Shown here piece by piece: positions 6,197 to 63,682 of a stretch of 64,000 nucleotides of DNA (the stretch's first letter is position 1; every line of letters begins with the position of its first letter). Made by a program: the position numbers and the translations under genes. The notes under the pieces are model-generated. The model saw nothing but the letters and a program-made list of their open reading frames with translations, did not search any database and had not been told where the DNA came from. This DNA comes from Paraspadella gotoi (taxonomy: Eukaryota > Animalia > Chaetognatha). Where the stretch lies: NCBI GenBank assembly GCA_051294375.1, contig CM119267.1, positions 24,319,244 to 24,383,243 on the forward strand. Direction: 5' to 3'.

Positions 6197-15989
<9,793 letters not shown>

Positions 15990-16734
15990 CGCTACAGGGA
16001 TAAACATTGTATATTTAAACATCGATAACATTGTTTATTAAACAAGCAACGTTATTAAATGAGATGTCTACCTTACTCCAAACCCCCTGATTGCTAAAAT
16101 AAAATATGAATTTAAGGCCTCGCCATGTCGTTCATCTTTATCGATTAAACTCATTAATTTTATATATTCAGTAATTTTTCTACAAGTCTAAAGTTGCTTT
16201 TCTTAATCTTTTAAATCGGCTTCCAATGTATTTTCTTCTTCTTCTCTCCCCACAATTTTTTTTTCAAAACGATTAATCGTGAATTAATCTAACCCGAATT
16301 TTTACGAATAATTAATTAATCAATTCATCTTTACTCTCTTTCATTGATAACTTGCGATTTAGCTTACTCGAAAGTTATAATTTTTTTTCCCTGTTTTATC
16401 ATTTAGCCAATAATTTAATCCAACGCATATCAATTTAAAAATTATTGTTATTTTTTACTTGAAAAAAAAAAATAAAAGAAAGACAATAACAATCGGTTAA
16501 TATAGTTAACATTTCAAGATTGAGTCAGTGAGAAATTCATGTTTATATTTTTGAGTTTGCAAAATAGAAAGATACTTGTACTTGTTATAAAACAATCCAA
16601 AACAACAATAAATATGCTAAAAAAAAAAAAAACTCTTCAGCTCCCACATGTCAGCCATGCACCCCTGCCCCTCTGCCCCCCAACTACTGCCCCGTCGAGG
16701 CCAATTTGACCTTGAGCTTGACTTTGTCCTCTAA

Positions 16735-20160
<3,426 letters not shown>

Positions 20161-21099
20161 TCTTGGAGGTTTGATTGTAAGAATGAGTTGATTGTACTAC
20201 TAAGTTGGTAAAATCTTTTACAGTTCAAGATACAAGAGTAAAACATACAGAGTTAATAAACTTAATCTAAAGAAAGATAGATATTTTAGTCGATTTCTAT
20301 TTTATTTATTAAATGAATGAATAATTTTTATATTGGTTGTACCAATTTCATACAATATGCGGTACATTGGCAATTACAATTGTAAAAATGATACATATAT
20401 TACTTAAAAAACAACAAACGACAAAAATAAGTTAAAAATCTAAACTAAAACTCACGAAATTCCAAAATGAAAAGGAAAGAAAATTCAGAATAATTTTTTT
20501 CTCAAAAGTTTAAAAAAAAACAGAGGCTCATTAAAATAATCTCAAGTAAAGGGAGTGAAGAGGCAGAGAGGGAAGAGAGAGAGAGAGAGAGAGAAGAGAG
20601 GAGGAGAGAGGAGAGAGAAGAGTGATCCTATGGAAGCGAGAAAAGTGAAGCTTATTAAGAGCGAGAGAAATCCTGATTTAAAACTTCTTTTTTTTGCGAT
20701 GCAAATTTTATTGGGAATCAACGGGTGAATCTTTATTTTTTTTACAAGTCACTCTTTCAGTTTGCGAAATCTTGCATCTAATTTTTTAAAAATGAAACTT
20801 AATTAAGTTTTAAAAAACCTTAAATGATAAAAGTCTTATGACCACAATTTCTATTTTCCCCCCAGTTTACTTTCCCAGCCCGCCTTTCCTCCTCTTCTCC
20901 CCTCCATCTCCTCCTCTCTTCTTCCCACTCTTCCTCTCCTCTCGTCTCTCCCCTATTTCACGCCCGCCCACCCACCCCTCTTCCTCTCCTCCCTACCCCA
21001 CCCTCTTCCTCAATCCCCGCCCACTTTCACGCCCCCCCCAGCCCTCCTTTCCTCTCTCCTCCCCCATTCAGCCCAATTTCACGCGTCCCCTCTCCCCAG

Positions 21100-37272
<16,173 letters not shown>

Positions 37273-38032
37273 AGTGACGAGTGTTTAGTCAAAACTTTAG
37301 ATTAATACTTTTAAGATAAGTTTCTGCTTAAAATTTCGAACAATAAATCTTTCCAATACATTATTGAACAAATTCCAATTTATTATGAACATAGACGGAA
37401 AGTAACAGGTCTTTGAATGAAATTATAAACAATTAATTATTGAATTTACAAACATTTATTTTACGACGCATTAGCATTGATGTTAATAAACTAGGAGTAA
37501 TGTGTGACTTTTTCTTCGAAAATTTTAAAGAGGAGCAAAAGAATTCATTTTTTGTTTAGGCTGTCTCTAAGAGACGCCGCTGCAACACAACAAGAAGCTT
37601 TCAAAAGTCTGAGAAAAAAACAAACAAAAGATTTTCGAAATTCCAGACTGTAGTTACAATTATAATGTAGGTAAAAAAGCCAAATGGAGTTTTATTTAAA
37701 ATAGATACCAATTACAATAAATACTTTACATTACATTACATTACTTGAGTTTTTTTCAAACCTCATTGGGTTTATATTTACATTCGCCGACCGGGATTTT
37801 GCGGTCGGTTATTTGTTTTTCGCTTCTTATGACTATGAGCGATGTATAGAAATCTCGCTACGCAAAAATAAATGACACTGTTAAGGGTAGAAAATTTTTA
37901 TATCCTAAATTTCATTTCGAAACCTCCCCTAACCCTAACTACCCCTAATCCCTAACCCTAACCACCACTAACCCAATTGCTTACCATTTAAAAAATATAA
38001 CAAAAATACTATTTATTTTATGAATTGTTTAT

Positions 38033-38251: not shown

Positions 38252-40018
38252 GTCAACAAACAATTCATTTTCTACCTCAAACATAAAAATATCAATTAAA
38301 ATAAATTTAAAACAATTATTACTTATTATAAATTTTAAAAAATGTATATTACTGGGCAAACTGACTCGACGCAGGAGGGAAAACAAAATTAAATGGATTA
38401 ACAAAGCACCGACCGCTAGTACCTAAACTTGGTTGCGTACGTCGAATAGTAAAGTTACCCTCTCACTGGTTCGCTAGCTGAGACCGCTATTCATTGAATG
38501 TTTTAAAAATTAAAATATTGTTAACTACAGGGGTGGCGAGAGGGGAGGACACCCTCGCCTCAGGGGGGCCCCTGAGAAGTGAGAAAAAAAGAAGGAAAGA
38601 AAAAAAGAAAAAAAATTTTAAAAAAGAAGAAAAGAAAAAAATTTTTAAAAAAGAAGAAAAGAAAAATAAAGAAGAAGAAAAATGAATTTAGTGATTATGA
38701 AAAAAGGTTCAGTTTGTGCAGATTAGTCTAACTGATCAAATTCAGGTTAGATCATGCTTGGGGTCCCTTTAGACTTTAGGGGTCAAGTTGGGCCCCTATT
38801 TAAGTCAAATCAAGGCCCATTGGTAATGTCCCAACTGTTTCAGGATATAGTCCATTTTACTTTTAATGGGGTCACTAATTCAGTCAAGTTAGGGCCCTTC
38901 TAGAGGTAAAAAACAAACAATTTAAAACAATTTAAAAATCAATGAGGGCCCCACAATACTTTATGAGATAGTAACCAAAGCAATGATAGCATACACGATA
39001 ATCCTTTTCTTTGGGACTTGGGTTATTATTAATTTATATATTTATATTTATTATATTATATTTTATCTCTATTGCTAAATCTAATTTAGACTAGATTTAC
39101 ACTACAGGAGAGGCACAATAATGTGATTTTAAAAAAATTTTAAAAAGTTTTTAAAAAGTTTTAAATTTTAAAAAAACTTTTAACAAGTTGCAAGTCCTGG
39201 AGGCAGAAGTTTGAGCACTGGAGCAATTTTCAAGGCAGAAAATCGGTAATCGAAAACTAAAATTATGGAGAGCGGCCAGGAGGCCAGGGGAGGGGCCCGC
39301 CATTTCTCTCGTTAACTAAAAAAAATATAAGACTGAAGGGAAATGTTGGACAGTTAAAATAGGAGAGAAGAAGTGTGAGATAAGAAACAAGTAAATTTGA
39401 AAAAGTTGTTGAAAAATGTTTTTGAAGATCGTTCATAATACTTAACATTACTTTCTACCATTTAATGATTCAGTTTATAACACGTATTTATTTATTTATT
39501 TTTTTCATAGGGAACACATTCAGTTAAAAAGGAAGGACTAAAACGAAGATAAGCGATAACAGGTTTCGATCGCTCAACCTTTTTCACTTTCGAAACCGGT
39601 TTTGAAATGCTTTACCTGTTCGGAGGGAGAACGTGTCGGGAGTCGGTTTATGAAATTGGTACAACCAATATAAAAATTATCCATTCATTTAATAAATAAG
39701 CTATCTTGCCCCTGACTTTGGACAGGCTTTGGTGGTTTAAGGCCTCATCACTCTTACAAGATAATTAAAAGATAATAATTACAAGATAATGTATTTTTCA
39801 AAAGCCCTGGATCTACCTCCTTTTAAATTAAATGATAATCAAATGATAATTCAAGATTACTACGCAGCACAACAAATCTCTTTCGAATTTTATTAAAACA
39901 ATGAAGAATAAAACTATTTACGAAGGACAGTTGCCTCAGAGATATTCGTTAAGGACGGTACAATTCTTCAACTCTTTACGTATGGAAATATCGATCTCAC
40001 TCATCACTTTATTTCAAG

Positions 40019-43000
40019 ATGGCGGACGAGGAGGATTCACGAAATTCGTCTCTTGATTTCAAGATGGCGACGAGAAGGATTTACGGTCAGAAAAGAATGA
40101 AGAAACGACGACATTGTCGACGGAAATGCTCGTCAAAGGTAAGTTTAGTTCATAATCAAATAGATAATGGTAAAGTGACTGTTAGAGAATATGAAAATGA
40201 AAATAGTTTTAAAATTTATCTTAAGCGCACGGAAGCATTTAAAAATTATTTTATTACTGTATAAAGTTTAAAAAAAATTTAATACATTCTGATAGAGCTT
40301 TAAAATTTAGATAAAGGTTATTATTATAATTTTGTTTAGGAGAAAATTTTTTTTTATTTTAAACAACGAATTTATTTAGCATGAAAAATGGACATGTTTC
40401 GGCTTCAATGTAAGCCTTCATCAGCGCAAAGTGCTATCAACACAACGAAACGAAAGAACCAATACAATATAATTTCTTTAAATTTTTCTGTTTTATTGAT
40501 AAAAATTTTAAAAAACCATTAAATTCAGCCAATGATGATGATAATAATGACTTTTTAAGGTTTTTTTTATTTTTAACCAATTTATTGTCAAAATTTGAAA
40601 AAATTATAGTACTAACTTTTATTTAACTTTTCAAGCTTTACAGGAATCCGTTCTTAAAAAAAAAATTTAAAATTTTTTTTTTCCATTTGTTATATATTAA
40701 TAAAAATTTAAAAGCTTCAGTTCAACAACCCAATGAACTAATTCAAAAGGTTGCATTGAAAATCGATTATGTGGTAGAAGGAAAAAAGAAATATTTTTGA
40801 GAATCTAAAGCAAATTTCGGCCAATGTAACTTTGATGTTAATTAAAGTTTTTTGAATTCAGCTTGTGTGCATTGTTTAAAAAATTGCATCACAGGCGAAT
40901 TCCACCCCTAACTTTATGCCGATTAACTGTCCCTTATTTTTGATGCTGCAGATTGCCCCCAGGCCCCGACCCCTCCTCGGCGACCTGACTTGGACTTTCT
41001 TCGAGTCTGCCTCACCTTTATCATCATCGCGTGGCACGTCAGTTCGGTTTACTTACCCATAAGGTAATGACGGTTATTATTAATGTTCATAATAACGTCT
41101 ATAATGTTTATGTTTGTGTTTATTTCATTTTTTTTTCAGATGGTACATCCTGGATCCGTGGCGAGACTATCTTCAACGCGATTGGACAGACACAGTAAAT
41201 ATCACATAGATACCATTGACGAATTGTCAGAAAAAGAGTAGCTATTTTAGAAGATAGATGAACAGTGAACACTGCTTTTTTTCACAATTTATTCACGAGA
41301 GCGAATTATAAGACCCGAAACGGATCGAGCGCAAACGTTCTACCGAGACTATCTCTCTGACTCCGATCCTTCATCCGAACTCCACAGTCCCCAGTCCAGG
41401 GGCGTGTAGAGGGGTAGACACTGAGGCGGAACAGGTTACAAACTAACAGAAGTCCGGTATAAATATTGTTAATGTTTTTATTAAAGATTGTAAAAATTAA
41501 AAAAAATTTAAAATTTATCTTATAGTTAAATGCATGGAAGCTATTTTATATTATCCAAATACTATATAATTTTTTTTAATAAATTAAATTTTTTTTTTTA
41601 CGGATTCTGATAGAGCTTGAAAAGTTATTATTATTATTATTATATTTATTATTATTAAAGGTTATTATTACTAAAAAAAAATAAAAATTTAATGAATGAT
41701 AATGATGATTTTTTAAAGTTTTTTTAAAATTTTAATGATCATTAAAATTTTGGAAATTTGTAGTACTAACCTTTATCTAACTTTTTAATCTTTATCAGAA
41801 TCCATTTTTAAAAATTGTAATTTCTGAAAACAATTTTTAAACATTTCTTATATTTTGTTAATTATTAAAATGCTTCCATGCATGAGGAAAATTAATTTAA
41901 TCAAAATCTAACATCATAAGTAAATTTGGTTTTAAAAGGACAAAAGACTTTTATCGCAGACTTTTTAATATTGTAAAAAAATGTTAAATTCTGTTCCGCC
42001 TTAGTAGACACGCTCCACAAAGCCACAGCCTGTTCATCCTGTTCATCCTGTTCATCCATTGAGCAAAGTGGTCATGAGGCCATTGAGGGGGTGGGGAAGA
42101 GATTGAGGGGAAGGGGGAAAAAACTCTTCCGCCGGTAAAAAGTATTTCGAATTGTACTTCGACCTGCGATTGATTAATATCCGGGTTCGATCATACACTT
42201 CCCTCAGGTGGGCGATATCTGGCGCGTCTACACCCGATGGTGGACCATGCACCTCTACTTCTTCCTCTCCGGTTTCAACACTTACCTCGCGCTGTGGCGC
42301 CGAGACGAGATCGCCTTCCGTCTCGAGCGGTGCCATCGACTCGCCGTTCCGGTGCTGTTCATGCTCGGCGTCACCAACGTCGGAATCGTCGCCACATATT
42401 GGGAGGAGATCACGCCGGCTTGTCTCAAGTGGGCGTGGCTGTTAGAGTGGGGGCGGATGGGCTCGAGGGAGGGGGGAGTTAATTAAAGAGGGCCACTTAA
42501 TTATTCCGTGATTAATTAAACAAGTTTGAGCAAACAATGTCGGATCTGCCCACGATCATTATCGGTAATTAAATAATTAATAATTAATTAATTAATAATT
42601 AATTAATTAATTCAAGTTAATTGATTAATTAATTAACTTTATCTGAAATGTTTGTTTTGATTTATTAATTGACTGATTAATTAATAATTGATTGACTAAT
42701 TGATTAATTAATTGATTAATTATTTGATTAATTTATACATCTTGCATTTACATTTGCTATTAAAAGAAAAAGAGGCATTGTGGTGGTATAATCACTAGGG
42801 TGGAGTGATGAAAAGATTGAGCGATTGAACATTATTTTTTTGCTGCCTATGGATATGTGAATAATGAATTTTAAATCCTTTTAAAAATTTTTTTAGCATA
42901 AAAGTATAGTAAATTCAATTATTTATGTAATAATATCCTTATAAAATCGTTAAATTTTAAAATATTTTTATTTTATTTTTAAGAACAGATTTGGATTCGC

Positions 43001-46000
43001 CATAAAAAATTAAGAAATTTTTATAAAATATGTTATGATATTTTAATGTTTAGAAAACAAAAAATGACTAAAACGTTTTAACATATATAAGTTTCTACTA
43101 CAGAGAATAAAAAACTCATAAATTTTTACTTTTTTCCCCGTTTTAAACGTTGAAGATGACAGAATTTTTGATAACATGTTTTATATTTTTGATTCAACTT
43201 TTTATGAAGAATCTGAATCTTTATTAAAAGTTTTAAAAAAATAATTTTTAAAATTAACTATTTTATAAGGATATTACTAAAAATATATTATATTTTACTA
43301 TTTTGTTCCCGAGATAATATGAACAAAATATTTTTTGTATTAGTTAATCATGCTATCTCACATCTAAATATCTTTGTTCGATCATTTAAATAAATTTTTT
43401 GTTCTTGAGTGCTCCACTCTAATATTCACACCACGTCACGTCACATCATATCACGTCAAGAATCATTCAGCCAATACAATTGGCTCGGAGGGGGAATACA
43501 CCATCCGAGGCGTTATGTTCCATCAACAGTCGTAACGAATTCACTCTGCGTTGGCAAAGCGAGACCGTTCTAGGGTAATCGCGCCAGTGACTTGAGGCGT
43601 CACTGAGGGTCGGAAGCCCCCAAAGCCAACAGTAAGATGCCGCATCCCAGGCAACCCGGCTGTTGCCATAGCATAATCAATTAGTGAAACAGTTTTTTTA
43701 AATTTTTTCCATTAATACGCATTTCCACTCAAACGATTCCATCGAAACTTGATTTCCAGCTTAATCACACACTTTCCTACCCACATACAAATTTCAGGTC
43801 AATTGCCCCATCCACTCATGAGTAATTGGTGTTCAAATAATGAAATACATTTTTGTTTTTTCCATTTAAACTCATTTCCACTCGGACGATTCCATCGAAA
43901 CTTCATATCCAATTCAATCACACACTTTCCTAACCACATACAAAATTTCATTCCAATCCATCCATCCAATCACGAGTAATTGGTGTTTTTTGTTAAGGGG
44001 ACGGACGGACAGACAGACAGACGGACATCGTTTTTTTTATTTCGCATAATTTATTATAATTCTATGTTCAGACATGATATAAGTGAATGCCCGACAAGTT
44101 TGGGGGGGCGGACCGATGGACCGACAGAGTCGGGATCTAAAAAACTAAAAAACTTGAGTAATGACGTATGGGAAAACTTAAAACATAAATTAGGAATTAG
44201 GATAATAGGGCTAGCAATTAAAGATTGAAGTTATGGATCAGTACGGTTGAATATGAATATTAAAACAAACGTAACAGAAATAGATCGTTTATAAAAAAAA
44301 AAGAGATTGCCCCCGACTTTGTTCAAACTTTTTAAAATAATCTTAACCAATGTGATTCAGTATTATTTTGATTCAAAATAGCTTTTCATCTCATCGCTCC
44401 CCTTCCTTCGAATCCAGGCGTCTAAAGGGAGGAGGCAGAGCGGGATGTCCAATCTACTTTCTTCCTAACTCCCACGAGTCTTTGGGACATTACGCGGTCA
44501 ACATTTGGACAAAGTTCGGAATGTACACGGCCCAGGGCTGGTTCCTCATTTGGCTCTTCATTCAAACGCAGGTCAACAATCTTGGCGACTTTTTAAATTT
44601 GTTAATTACTCTTTATAACTGTTGATAATGATAATGATTTGCAGAAGACATTATGGCTGAAGATTTGTAACGTGAATCTCTCTCTCTCTCTGAGGAATTG
44701 TTACTAAGTCCTTGTAGAGTACTTGCAACTATGTTAATCCCGAAGTGAGAAGGCTATGGACAATCTCGACTATTTTGACATTGGTTGAATCAAATTTAAT
44801 AAATGGAACCGCCCCAAATTTCCCCCATCTCCAAAAGGTTTTAGCGACTTTCTTCTGCATCTGTCATCCTTCCTCGGCTTCAGTCTTCGCTCGACTAGGG
44901 CGGCGCCTCGACGCCGCCAAACCCGGCGCCGTCTCGTTACGTCTGCGGCGTCTGCGCGACTGGGGCGCCGCATCGCCGCGTCGATTCGCCAGCGCCGTCT
45001 ACTTTTGCGTCGGCGGCGAATCCGGCGTCAAATTAGTGCTGATTCCCGGCGTCGGTTTATCCGCCTGCTTGGTGAGGGAAAGGAGAGACTGAAAAGCATT
45101 TTTGACCTCAGCTACTAATTACCTAAATAATAATACCCAATAACTATTAACTAATAATAATAATGTGAAGAAATGTCAGGTGAAATATCATTAATTGACA
45201 AAACGCGAAGACATCCTTTAACATACATCTAGTATGAGGGATGGGGGCATGGCCTTTCCAAAGTTAAGGGCAAGATAGTTTATTCATTAAAATTTTAATA
45301 TAGTTTGTCCGAATTTCATACACACCAAATCATTTATATCGTATACTATATATACAACGTTTTGTATTTCCTAATTACAGGCGTTTGGCCATTGGTTGTA
45401 CCCGTCGATCGTTTCGTGGTTCTACGATTTTCCAGAAGGTTCGTTAGATTCTAGACTATAAAGTTAATCTTATTCAATTACATTTTTTATTGTAGAGTGA
45501 AGCGTAGTAAAAATTATAAATTTAACTTTAATTAAAATTCTAAAATTGAAGAACGAACAACATTATACTAATGAACATTTATGTATAAAAAAATTTTCTA
45601 ATAAATTTTACAATTTATGCAGTAGGCCATATTTATACTAGTGCTAATCCAATAAATGTTAAAATTTCAAAATAGTTTTTTGTAAGATTTGTTTGCATGA
45701 AAAGTTGATATAAAGAAATATAACTCTTTTTAAAAAAATATTTCATTAAGTTGGTCAAATATAAAAAAATCTATATTTTAAGCTAAAAATTAAAATCTTA
45801 CATATTAAATTTAGTTTTTTTAATTTTTAACCGACTTAATGAAAGAATTTTTAAAAATGATTTATATTTTCTTTTATCCACTTTTGACGAGGAATTCAAA
45901 TCTGCAAAATTAAGAAAAGCCTATTTTGAAATTTATCGATTTTATAAGGATAGTGTGGCGGTATATTCACACCGCCTCACGTCCACTGTCGTTCAGCTAA

Positions 46001-47521
46001 ATCCATTGGCTCAGAGGGGGAACACAATATCCCAGGCGTAGTGTTCCATCCACAGTCCTGACGAATTCTCTGCGTTGGCAAAGCGAGACCGTCCTAGGGT
46101 AACCGCGCCAGTGACTGGATGCGTCACTGAGGGTCGGAAACCCCCAAAGCCAACAGTGAGATGCCCCATCCCAATGGGAATCACAGGCAACCCAGCTGTT
46201 GCCATAATAGTACTATTTATAAATATAGCCTACTGTGAAAATTGAAGAACATAATTTTTTTTTTTTTTACAAATCTGTTCACTGATGGTATGTTGTTAAT
46301 AATTGACATTTAGAATTTTCGTATGTAACTTTCACTACGCTCTACAATGAAGAGTACAGATAGATTTTAAAATCAGTTTTATATTTTCATATTCAACCTT
46401 CGAAGGTTTGGGATACATCTTTGTCCAAATAGCCGGATTCGCTTTGGCGGCCATTGACGATCGCGTGATTGTCATTATTAAGCGAAAGGCGTGGCTGTTT
46501 TTGGTGGCTGGTCACGTGATTCTAATCGCTTTCAGGTTTAAAAAAAATACATGGTAACTTCATTAAAAAAAACTGCACATCTCATACGCAATTTTTTCTC
46601 TCGACATGAAAATATATTTAAATAATTTAAATATATATTATATATAAGGATTATATTGGTTGTACCAATTTCATAATTTTTATTTTTCCTCAATATTTAA
46701 AGCTTGAAAGAAAAATAACTAAAATATGGTTAATTCCCTCTTTCAAAATCAACCAAAAAGATGCCAGAGACACCTCACAATCTCAATTCTCCGTTTTCCC
46801 GCCAGAGGTAACGGAACCTTTTTTCCCGCCTTCTTCGCTTGGATGGAGACCCTCGTCGACTCGGATATCGTCTCCGGCATTTGGGGGGGCTTCGGCATCT
46901 GGCTCACGATCTTGGGTTCGGTGGGCGTGGCACGGAAGTTAGTTACGTCTCATTCGCCTCGATTGGCGGCGTTGGCGGAGATGTCGATGCCGATCTACAT
47001 CACTCACGTGAGAAACAGTGAATGTGGTTGTAAGGGGATGATGTAGTTAGGAAAGGGTCAAAGGGAACGAACGAATAGTAATGTAACCAAATAAGGACCC
47101 TGTAAATTTCATACCTCGTCTCCTTAATAAATAATCTGTCCTAGGATAGATATAGATAGGACGGAGAGGCGACAGTGAGCTATTCTTAAGGTTGTATATG
47201 TCATGGTCAATAACTCTTACCATACCCCCCCATTTCCCCCCCCCCCAACAGATCCAAATCCTCGTCTTCCTCGGCGTCTTCTTCCTTCGTCTTCCTCTCC
47301 TCCATCATTTCCTCTTCTTCTTCCTCTTCCTCTGTCTCGTCCTCCTCGTCGTCGCTCGTCTCATCGTCTCCTCCTCTTCGATCAAATACTTTTTCGGTCT
47401 TCGGCCAGAAAAGGGGGCGTGGCTGCCGGGCGAGCGGCTCTGCGGCCTCGGACCCTGTTTGGCGCTGCTGGCGCTGACGATGGCGCAGTCCAAATTGAGG
47501 GAGATGTATTTGATTGGATGA
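40019..47521 (+). CDS. Acyltransferase-3 family membrane O-acyltransferase (MdoC/OpgC-like), about 10 exons
   Basis: Exons 40019-40138, 40963-41063 (RRPDLDFLRVCLTFIIIAWH), 41140-41194, 42208-42429 (WTMHLYFFLSG..ERCHRLAVP), 44418-44571 (GWFLIWLF), 44838-45071, 45381-45438, 46406-46535, 46806-47007 (EMSMPIYITH), 47252-47521 (IKYFFGL). Phases are compatible and there are multiple TM segments. Confidence 0.85.
40388..40430 (-). ncRNA. Minimal hammerhead ribozyme motif (Penelope-like); stem I degenerate
   Basis: Reverse complement GCG-CTGATGA-a-GGCTT-ACATTG-AAGCC-GAAAC-AT-GTC. Confidence 0.65.
42779..43670 (+). mobile_element. Solo LTR, family A, interrupted by a hAT MITE
   Basis: TSD GCAT on both sides. 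The empty site (AAGCATAATCAATTAG, single GCAT) is visible in the host repeat's other copy near 57393. Confidence 0.8.
42796..43421. mobile_element. hAT-type MITE
   Basis: TIRs TAGGGTGGAG/CTCCACTCTA; 8-bp TSD ATAATCAC/ATATTCAC; second copy at ~47838-48450. Confidence 0.75.
45954..46206 (+). mobile_element. Solo LTR, family A
   Basis: TGTGGCGG...GTTGCCATA with TSD ATAG. Confidence 0.8.
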
Positions 47522-47837
47522 TAGACAGATTCGAAGTATTATTGGGGTTCTCGATGATATCTTGGTGATAGCTGCGGTGACTCAAATAACGAATATTTGG
47601 AAAAACTTGAGGCGTGTTTTTTGTGTGATAAGTAAAACGTTTTGGTCATTCCTGCTGACCCCTACGGGTCGCAAAGTAGAAAGACTTCGTCGTCGTTTTA
47701 TTCGTCGTCTTTGTTATCGCATGAACTATTTGAGCTTCCAAATATCTTTACTGGTAATTGTTGACTCTTGTTTAAAATGTGATTATATGGAATACGTCGC
47801 AGGCTTGGGGGGGGGGAAATCACAGTGCAATGTTCAA

Positions 47838-49014: not shown

Positions 49015-50103
49015 TCACAAACAAAAGTCGTCCGCCGTCGATGGCGCTTTTATCGGAATTTCTCTCACATAAAATGGCAAAGATTTCCATTGAAATTTTT
49101 TTGGTAGAATTTCGTTACGAAATTTGAGTCGCAGCGAGTCGCGAGACAGCATTATCTGAAAGAGGGAGGAAAGGATATATATATATATTATATATATATA
49201 TATATATAAGATAATATAAAAAGTCCAAAAAGCGAGGAAGGTCAGAAAGAAAATTAAAAAAAAAAAAAGACGGACGACTGGATAAAGTTATACTCAGAAG
49301 AAATATACAGCATAAAAAATAAAAACGTTAACCTAAAAAAAATCAATCAATCAAATTAATCAATGCCAAAGCTATTCCTCCTTGTGAACTTACTCGACTT
49401 CCTTTATGGCTGAATTCCGTCTTGAAAAAAAGTTCTGTTCCGAGTCGCGCGTCGCAAACTCGACAAAAAACGTCGCCTGACGAAATAAGTTTTGTATTTA
49501 CGAACCTGGGGGAGCCTTTTGTTTCTTATAGCTAATTATGGTTCTTATTGGTTAAGTTAATTTTGAGATTGGAGTGACCGGCCTCGGCGGCTAAACGGAT
49601 TTAAAAATGATTTTTGGCCTTATAGACTTGTCCTCGGCCCTCGCGAATTATCTTCTTATTTTTCTTTGTCCGTTTGTGTTCGTGTTGGTGGGTTAGTTCA
49701 CTATTTATTTATTATTTTTTAATCTTTCTTTTTCTTTTTATCACTATTTCCTTTTATTTCGTTCGCCAATTTTTTTTCCTTTACTCTTTCCTCTTCTTTC
49801 CTTCTCTCTTTCCCTTTTTTTCCTTCTCTCTTTTCCTTTTTTTCTTTTTCTTTCCTTCTCTCTTTCTCCTTTTTTCCTCCTCCCTTCACCTCCTCCCTCA
49901 CCGACATAATCCTCGTCGAAGAAAGACTTCTTCCTCTCCTCCTCCAACGGCTTGACGACGACCCTCTCCAGGATGTCGTCGTCGTCGGCCACGTGATGCT
50001 GCTTAATCCTGATCACGTGACGTCCGCTTACGACGTCGGCGCCGCAGGCCTTGCAGGCGACGGTGTAGGAAGCGGGGTTGGAATCGCTCGTCGGATCCTG
50101 CAT
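49015..50103 (-). CDS. Stand-alone RIG-I-like receptor C-terminal (regulatory, Zn-binding) domain protein, 141 aa
   Basis: Exons 50103-49902 (MQDPTSDSNPASYTVACKACGADVVSGRHVIRIKQHHVAD...), 49476-49394 (GDVFCRVCDARLGTELFF...), 49155-49015 (IMLSRDSLRLKF...KKFQWKSLPFYVRE...*). GT-AG sites, open frame, two CxxC motifs, HHV and W..LPF.V motifs. Confidence 0.85.
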
Positions 50104-50376
50104 CCTCGGTTTTTTTTGTTTTTCTTCAGTTTAGTGAAAAAGGGGCGTGGCGTTACGAGACAACAATGCGACGATTTGACTAATCCTTTTTCTTTTTAAG
50201 ATCTGTGTGTATATTATTTATTAAAATTGATTAATATCGCTACATCGATCTTATGCAGAAATATAAACTAATATTGTTAAGTCGCTTCAATATCACAATA
50301 AAACTAAAAGGCTTCGGGACGCCAATTAAGAAGGGCCGTCAATGCCCCATCGGGAGCACGGCTCTGAGGGCGAGCC

Positions 50377-63682
<13,306 letters not shown>

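Follow-up and report, generated by a model that had tools for sequence, protein, structure and literature searches.

A gene for a stand-alone RIG-I-like receptor C-terminal domain behind a receptor gene in Paraspadella gotoi

The locus

Two RIG-I-like receptor (RLR)-related genes lie in tandem on the minus strand of the window, that is, the whole 64-kb stretch of Paraspadella gotoi DNA analysed here. The first encodes an RLR with helicase, pincer and C-terminal domain (CTD), and the second, hereafter the mini-CTD gene, encodes a CTD alone. The features are listed below in the direction of transcription; P0014 denotes the closest relative found for the neighbouring RLR, and X1 a public sequencing run described under Transcription.

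52431..63682, minus strand: ten helicase and pincer exons of the neighbouring RLR, whose 5' part lies past the window end
52104-51855, 51449-51367, 51218-51138 and 50487-50377, minus strand: CTD exons of the neighbouring RLR, the last junction being seen in X1
50104..50376 (273 nt), minus strand: spacer between the RLR stop codon (50379-50377) and the mini-CTD ATG, covered unbroken by one X1 contig
50217..50222, minus strand: candidate RLR poly(A) signal, the sole AATAAA/ATTAAA in the spacer, putatively used
50124..50145, minus strand: candidate splice acceptor (trans or cis) or candidate core promoter, pyrimidine-rich and ending in an AG 20 nt 5' of the ATG
49902..50103 (202 nt), minus strand: mini-CTD exon 1, with the ATG, first CxxC (C17/C20), H36-H37, basic loop R57-K59 and F61; covered by an X1 contig with 0 differences
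49394..49476 (83 nt), minus strand: mini-CTD exon 2, with the second CxxC (C72/C75); 28 of its letters form the loose end at 49901 in X1
49015..49155 (141 nt), minus strand: mini-CTD exon 3, with the conserved FQWK motif, a short tail and the stop codon; assigned by frame and similarity to P0014

The model of the neighbouring RLR comprises 14 exons in the window, all with GT-AG boundaries, and gives an open frame of 676 aa that ends in a TGA at 50379-50377; single exons match the Pfam families DEAD and Helicase_C. A preliminary reading made from the sequence only had described this gene as a full RLR; it is indeed intact over the portion that the window contains, which begins at helicase motif Ia and ends with the stop codon; motif I, like any N-terminal domain, falls outside. 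P0014, with which the model is identical at 350 of 653 positions from P0014 residue 196 onwards, was the best of the three candidates (out of 22) that passed a helicase-exon search, whereas another such search passed none of 48. This protein of 867 aa matches Pfam DED (28 bits, below the cut-off of 35.9), DEAD, Helicase_C and RIG-I_C-RD, and its nearest solved structure is MDA5 (9e-55). Because P0014 carries a DED-helicase-CTD architecture, the neighbouring gene probably encodes an RLR of the DED type, which is on record from invertebrates (PMC8662601, PMC8998645); its own N-terminus is outside the window. P0014 itself is an unannotated full-length RLR on a 3073-nt JGI contig, and its CTD falls below the Pfam cut-off (23.9 versus 25.6 bits), so that this RLR lineage is easily overlooked.

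Reading of the frame gave the mini-CTD gene three exons and 141 codons (minus strand, 50103-49015) with no internal stop, and both of its introns are GT-AG, in phases 1 and 0. An intact three-exon, 141-aa CTD-only ORF about 270 bp behind the RLR stop codon is what the sequence-only reading had proposed, and both the ORF and the gap (exactly 273 nt) were recovered, as were all of the motifs listed for it (CKAC, HHV, CRVC and KKFQWKSLPF.V). The feature does not extend to position 50377, as had been stated, since that position belongs to the RLR stop codon. The ATG stands 16 residues before C17, at the domain boundary, with an A at -3, and in pairwise comparison exon 3 is identical to P0014 at 15 of 34 positions (E 6e-9). 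With neither a DExD/H helicase nor a pincer, the product falls outside the full RLR family. No third copy of the CTD was found by tblastn within the 64-kb window.

Origin and homology

Local duplication of the RLR CTD exons had been put forward as the origin of the mini-CTD gene, and both exon structure and alignment support it. Local alignment of the mini-CTD with the neighbouring CTD scored 189, a value reached in none of 2000 shuffles (maximum 59). As claimed, both mini-CTD introns share aligned positions and phases with the first two CTD introns of the neighbour, and the middle exon is 83 nt in both genes (51449-51367 in the neighbour); to this can be added that the neighbour's third CTD intron (51137-50488) is absent from the mini-CTD gene. 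The homology spans the whole domain when the mini-CTD is set against CTDs from RLRs that possess a helicase: 43/135 positions are identical in the neighbour and 40/135 in P0014, compared with 70/144 between the latter two. The zinc cysteines (C17/C20 and C72/C75) form pairs 55 residues apart, in keeping with the spacing of about 54 in the family; those of RIG-I are C810, C813, C864 and C869 (PMC9557057). Residues P10, C17, K18, C20, V25, H36, E56, F61 and E64 are invariant in all eight aligned rows.

Pfam was scanned with single exons. RIG-I_C-RD (PF11648) was the best of five families for exon 1 alone (E 7.5e-4), but at 20.1 bits the match lies under the cut-off of 25.6, as does that of the whole P0014 CTD at 23.9; exons 2 and 3 gave no match. 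Fold models of the half-domain and of the relative were of low confidence (pLDDT 52 and 46); in fold comparison, their best RLR rows reached Z 2.0-2.5, and Foldseek returned no match under E 0.001 with them. The ESM Atlas held no usable match for the P0014 CTD and its sole rows for exon 1 were zf-BED-like and below 0.9; a phmmer search of the PDB with the P0014 CTD alone listed no RLR among its matches. A protein search for a mini-CTD orthologue, in collections poor in spliced animal protein, passed 0 of 1 candidates. The one metagenome stretch among 595 that passed the mini-CTD search (L001) was rejected as antisense to a dehydrogenase-like ORF. Of six representative matches from a separate search, three (P0002, P0005 and P0006) were dropped as repeats unrelated to the CTD.

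Selection and divergence

The suggestion that purifying selection has preserved the frame and its zinc ligands received statistical support from codon comparison and from simulation. Over 121 codon pairs, identity between the mini-CTD and its neighbour was 0.46, 0.62 and 0.37 at codon positions 1, 2 and 3, a pattern that sums both branches of the pair. For neutral decay, the neighbour's CTD served as stand-in ancestor and was substituted, with no indels, using each of two base mixes until identity had fallen to 70, 60, 50 or 40%; in these eight settings, an open frame with all four cysteines was kept in 61, 25, 18, 5, 6, 0, 2 and 0 of 3000 runs. GC3 of exon 1 is 0.84, against an intron GC of 0.26-0.36, and is lower in exons 2 and 3 (0.37 and 0.41). 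The mini-CTD gene is very probably a functional protein-coding gene.

Divergence has nonetheless been considerable. In a six-row tree (split 84/93), the mini-CTD branch measures 5.45 against a median of 0.42, a length that leaves the duplication undated by the tree. Of the 121 columns, 33 are common to both RLRs and changed in the mini-CTD, which, together with the very long branch, fits relaxed or redirected selection. Columns that the mini-CTD has in common with just one of the two RLRs number 14 for the neighbour and 8 for P0014. Insertions peculiar to the neighbour's CTD are missing from it; this and the long branch suggest that the mini-CTD is old, fast-evolving or both.

RNA-binding residues and predicted function

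In RIG-I, F853 stacks on blunt ends, and H847, K858, K861 and K888 grip the triphosphate (PMC11346460); LGP2, which has no affinity for triphosphate, also binds blunt ends, and MDA5 binds stems (PMC11346460, PMC10681732). Residues of the mini-CTD were placed on RIG-I by their spacing from the third zinc cysteine (C864), assuming no gaps and using no structure. By this count, F61 precedes the third cysteine by 11 residues, just as F853 precedes C864, and the positions of K858 (-6), K861 (-3) and H847 (-17) are occupied by Tyr66, Asp69 and Glu55, while that of K888 has no certain placement. The mini-CTD is thus without a RIG-I-type pocket (H847, K858, K861), and binding of 5'-triphosphate, which the sequence-only reading had considered, is unlikely on these grounds. 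Phe at -11 is found in the neighbour and P0014 as well, and both are without lysine at -6 and -3, so loss of the two lysines is not specific to the mini-CTD. A basic triplet at -15 to -13 is present in the mini-CTD only, vis-à-vis the neighbour and P0014; its core has a pI of 8.9, versus 7.05 in the neighbour, the acidic tail is lost, and of the KWK-type backbone motif (PMC8464030) it retains WK. The pI of the whole protein is 6.9, with an acidic patch in exon 1.

The mini-CTD gene is real as a spliced coding frame and is a homologue of the RLR CTD; it is neither an RLR nor the bearer of a RIG-I-type triphosphate pocket. The simplest reading of its residues would be an LGP2-like blunt-end binder without motor or signalling domain. 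Its product is probably made as a stand-alone protein and, to judge by the conserved positions, may well bind RNA.

As a tentative best explanation, we propose that this intact, spliced, CTD-only duplicate yields a 141-residue zinc protein that caps blunt dsRNA ends and damps the upstream RLR. The duplicated CTD exons form an intact spliced gene, likely translated into a protein with a predicted zinc fold; this protein is expected to cap blunt dsRNA ends and to ignore 5'-triphosphate. Having neither ATPase nor signalling domain, it would compete with the RLR encoded directly upstream, and the competition would presumably damp that receptor. Through the 273-nt spacing, the two genes could be induced together. 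A brake is the likeliest sign because repressor domains block RIG-I in trans and the positive role of LGP2 needs its ATPase. Indeed, the RIG-I repressor domain alone blocks signalling, the LGP2 repressor domain acts in trans, and the positive role of LGP2 requires the ATPase domain (PMC3914343); the trans-inhibition data come from vertebrate over-expression. That the mini-CTD is on balance an inhibitor of the RLR is a possibility that we favour with reserve.

The same end-binding residues (F61 and the invariant positions) would also suit a positive partner that helps the RLR to load on stems, or a restriction factor that blocks viral RNA ends directly; the core more basic than the neighbour's and the positive roles of LGP2 (PMC3914343) point in this direction as well. 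The positive role of LGP2, however, depends on an ATPase domain that is missing from the mini-CTD (PMC3914343), and we regard these two options together as unlikely. A slightly poorer prospect is a redirected zinc domain that has lost RNA binding and become a protein adaptor. The long branch, the acidic patch of exon 1 with the whole-protein pI of 6.9, and the weak resemblance of the family's CTD to Yippee-Mis18 (E 0.075) would be in line with such a role, but the mini-CTD keeps H36-H37, F61, the basic loop and the WK of the KWK-type motif (PMC8464030).

Transcription and the intergenic spacer

Evidence of transcription was sought in four public runs, none recorded as RNA. X1 is presumed to be RNA, and its junctions show splicing; it comes from one study, as contigs only, and was mapped on 49885-50630. 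Run X2 had 0 records on this interval, and the pieces contributed by runs X3 (4) and X4 (2), each roughly 30 nt long, all fell on a GAC repeat, so that one of the four runs supports the mini-CTD at the RNA level. An X1 contig of 1199 nt agrees with 49901-50489 at every position (0 differences), and the loose end that it has at 50489 corresponds to the penultimate RLR exon, so that the last RLR junction is seen spliced. At 49901, a loose end made up of 28 letters from mini-CTD exon 2 shows that exons 1 and 2 are spliced. A second X1 contig with 30 mapped letters carries the latter junction at a depth of about 236, versus 334 for the long contig by bin arithmetic, depths that cannot rank genes; the exon 1-2 splice is more than a trace. 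For this junction, the predicted splicing of the mini-CTD gene was confirmed.

In one X1 contig, RNA runs unbroken from the spliced end of the RLR across the spacer into mini-CTD exon 1. A separate transcription start, which had been expected near 50110-50200, receives no support from X1, in which this contig joins the RLR exons to exon 1. Contigs can fuse overlapping transcripts and drop short tips (poly(A), spliced leader), and so an own promoter, operon-type processing and read-through are all compatible with the data. We give about an even chance to a promoter of the mini-CTD gene's own, situated within the RLR 3' end or overlapping it; processing as in operons is less probable, and an mRNA made by read-through only is less probable again.

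The spacer is in frame with both genes, yet contains seven stops, which rules out stop-codon read-through from the RLR into the mini-CTD. Two ATGs upstream of the start codon lie in it, with frames of 3 codons and 1 codon. The AG at 50124 has a pyrimidine share of 0.74, the highest of 16 AG sites between 50376 and 50080, and it is the only one of the eight AGs downstream of the AATAAA within the range of true acceptors (0.53-0.95, n=16). A GC-box-like word upstream of the mini-CTD ATG was set aside as promoter evidence, its five other copies among the six in the window being without promoter support.

Eukaryotic operons with trans-splicing occur in nematodes and tunicates. The locus resembles these in its short spacer, in the AATAAA that precedes a pyrimidine-AG by about 100 nt and in its continuous RNA; it differs from them in that no spliced leader was seen at the mini-CTD locus, where no loose end is listed in the spacer of X1 contigs, which drop short tips. 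A full two-gene antiviral operon, in which one precursor is resolved by cleavage at the AATAAA and trans-splicing at 50123 into a death-effector-type RLR and a stand-alone blunt-end-capping repressor domain, seems improbable as a whole; if it were true, the sensor would be hard-wired to its own brake.

The mini-CTD could also remain untranslated: its exons may prolong read-through RLR transcripts at the 3' end, perhaps targeting them to NMD, or the gene may have died recently. This would accommodate the unbroken contig from RLR exons into exon 1, with no separate start demonstrated, and the two short upstream ATGs; it is made very unlikely by selection on the protein frame, by an ATG with A at -3 at the domain boundary and by the tendency of contigs to fuse overlapping transcripts. 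Least credible of all is an alternative 3' cassette by which RLR helicase exons splice to the second CTD and swap specificity: the AG at 50124 matches the RLR donor at 52712 in phase and reads on in frame to the ATG, and there is an in-frame CAG at 50098, but the 52712-to-50124 join would remove the pincer, the 50098 site has a pyrimidine share of only 0.21, and X1 depth is flat over 49935-50384, with no joint among the matches listed.

Relation to known systems

The sequence-only reading knew of no characterised natural CTD-only RLR gene. No functional study of such a gene was found in a literature that came mostly without subscription papers, and neither was a tandem pair of RLR and CTD-only gene; but a CTD-only model is in print, namely Aplysia californica LOC101853805, an uncharacterised gene model with no domain other than a RIG-I-like CTD (PMC9334734). 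Because it has already been reported, the novelty of the mini-CTD is lower than claimed. The likeness rests on the domain description, the Aplysia gene being known from annotation. Nothing on CTD-only genes was found in a planarian paper (PMC8797187).

Among characterised proteins, LGP2 is similar in having no signalling domain, in an aromatic capping residue without triphosphate lysines and in the capacity, predicted for the mini-CTD, to act in trans (PMC3914343, PMC11346460); it differs in keeping its helicase, whereas the mini-CTD is a CTD alone. The isolated RIG-I and LGP2 repressor domains are laboratory constructs, and the mini-CTD is a separate natural gene. Helicase loss and CTD duplication recur in DED-type invertebrate RLRs, the type to which P0014, the neighbour's closest relative, belongs by its DED-helicase-CTD architecture: in Patiria, one protein combines DED and CTD but has no helicase, and another has two CTDs (PMC8662601). 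The Patiria proteins keep a DED, however, whereas the mini-CTD has no signalling domain and an ORF of its own. Supplementary Table 5 of the same paper tallies CTD proteins per class, one of which may be CTD-only; if so, such models would be common (PMC8662601).

In invertebrate genomes, models of a CTD alone are for the most part removed by filters or are indistinguishable from fragments; one survey of invertebrate RLRs, for instance, demanded both helicase and CTD (PMC8998645). Since the mini-CTD lies below the Pfam cut-off, similar genes may be widely missed. Whole in frame, spliced between exons 1 and 2, apparently under selection and joined to its parent at the RNA level, the mini-CTD would provide a clean natural test of a free CTD as brake or decoy.

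Other features of the window

A multi-exon acyltransferase-3 gene at about 40000-47600 (plus strand), with weak Pfam Acyl_transf_3 matches on two exons, converges on the 3' end of the mini-CTD gene. A dispersed repeat of about 270 nt (copies 87-90% alike) occurs at 50609-50877, 45951-46220, near 17000-17235 and at 43470-43676, one copy lying inside the RLR intron that is absent from the mini-CTD gene. Two exons of a WD40 gene, which we take to be WDR63/DNAI3-like, occur twice on the minus strand (24676-25692 and 31425-32500); the first set adjoins an N gap and differs in frame, which suggests misassembly or partial duplication. On the same strand, cysteine-rich exons at 6991-7356 and 10542-11127 have no Pfam match and presumably belong to the Ly6/uPAR type, and a gene at about 16700-20200 has an F420_oxidored-type NADP-binding exon and is, we assume, related to pyrroline-5-carboxylate reductase. 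Short degenerate telomere-like (TAACCC) arrays lie in non-coding DNA at 37920-37980 and 52200-52270.
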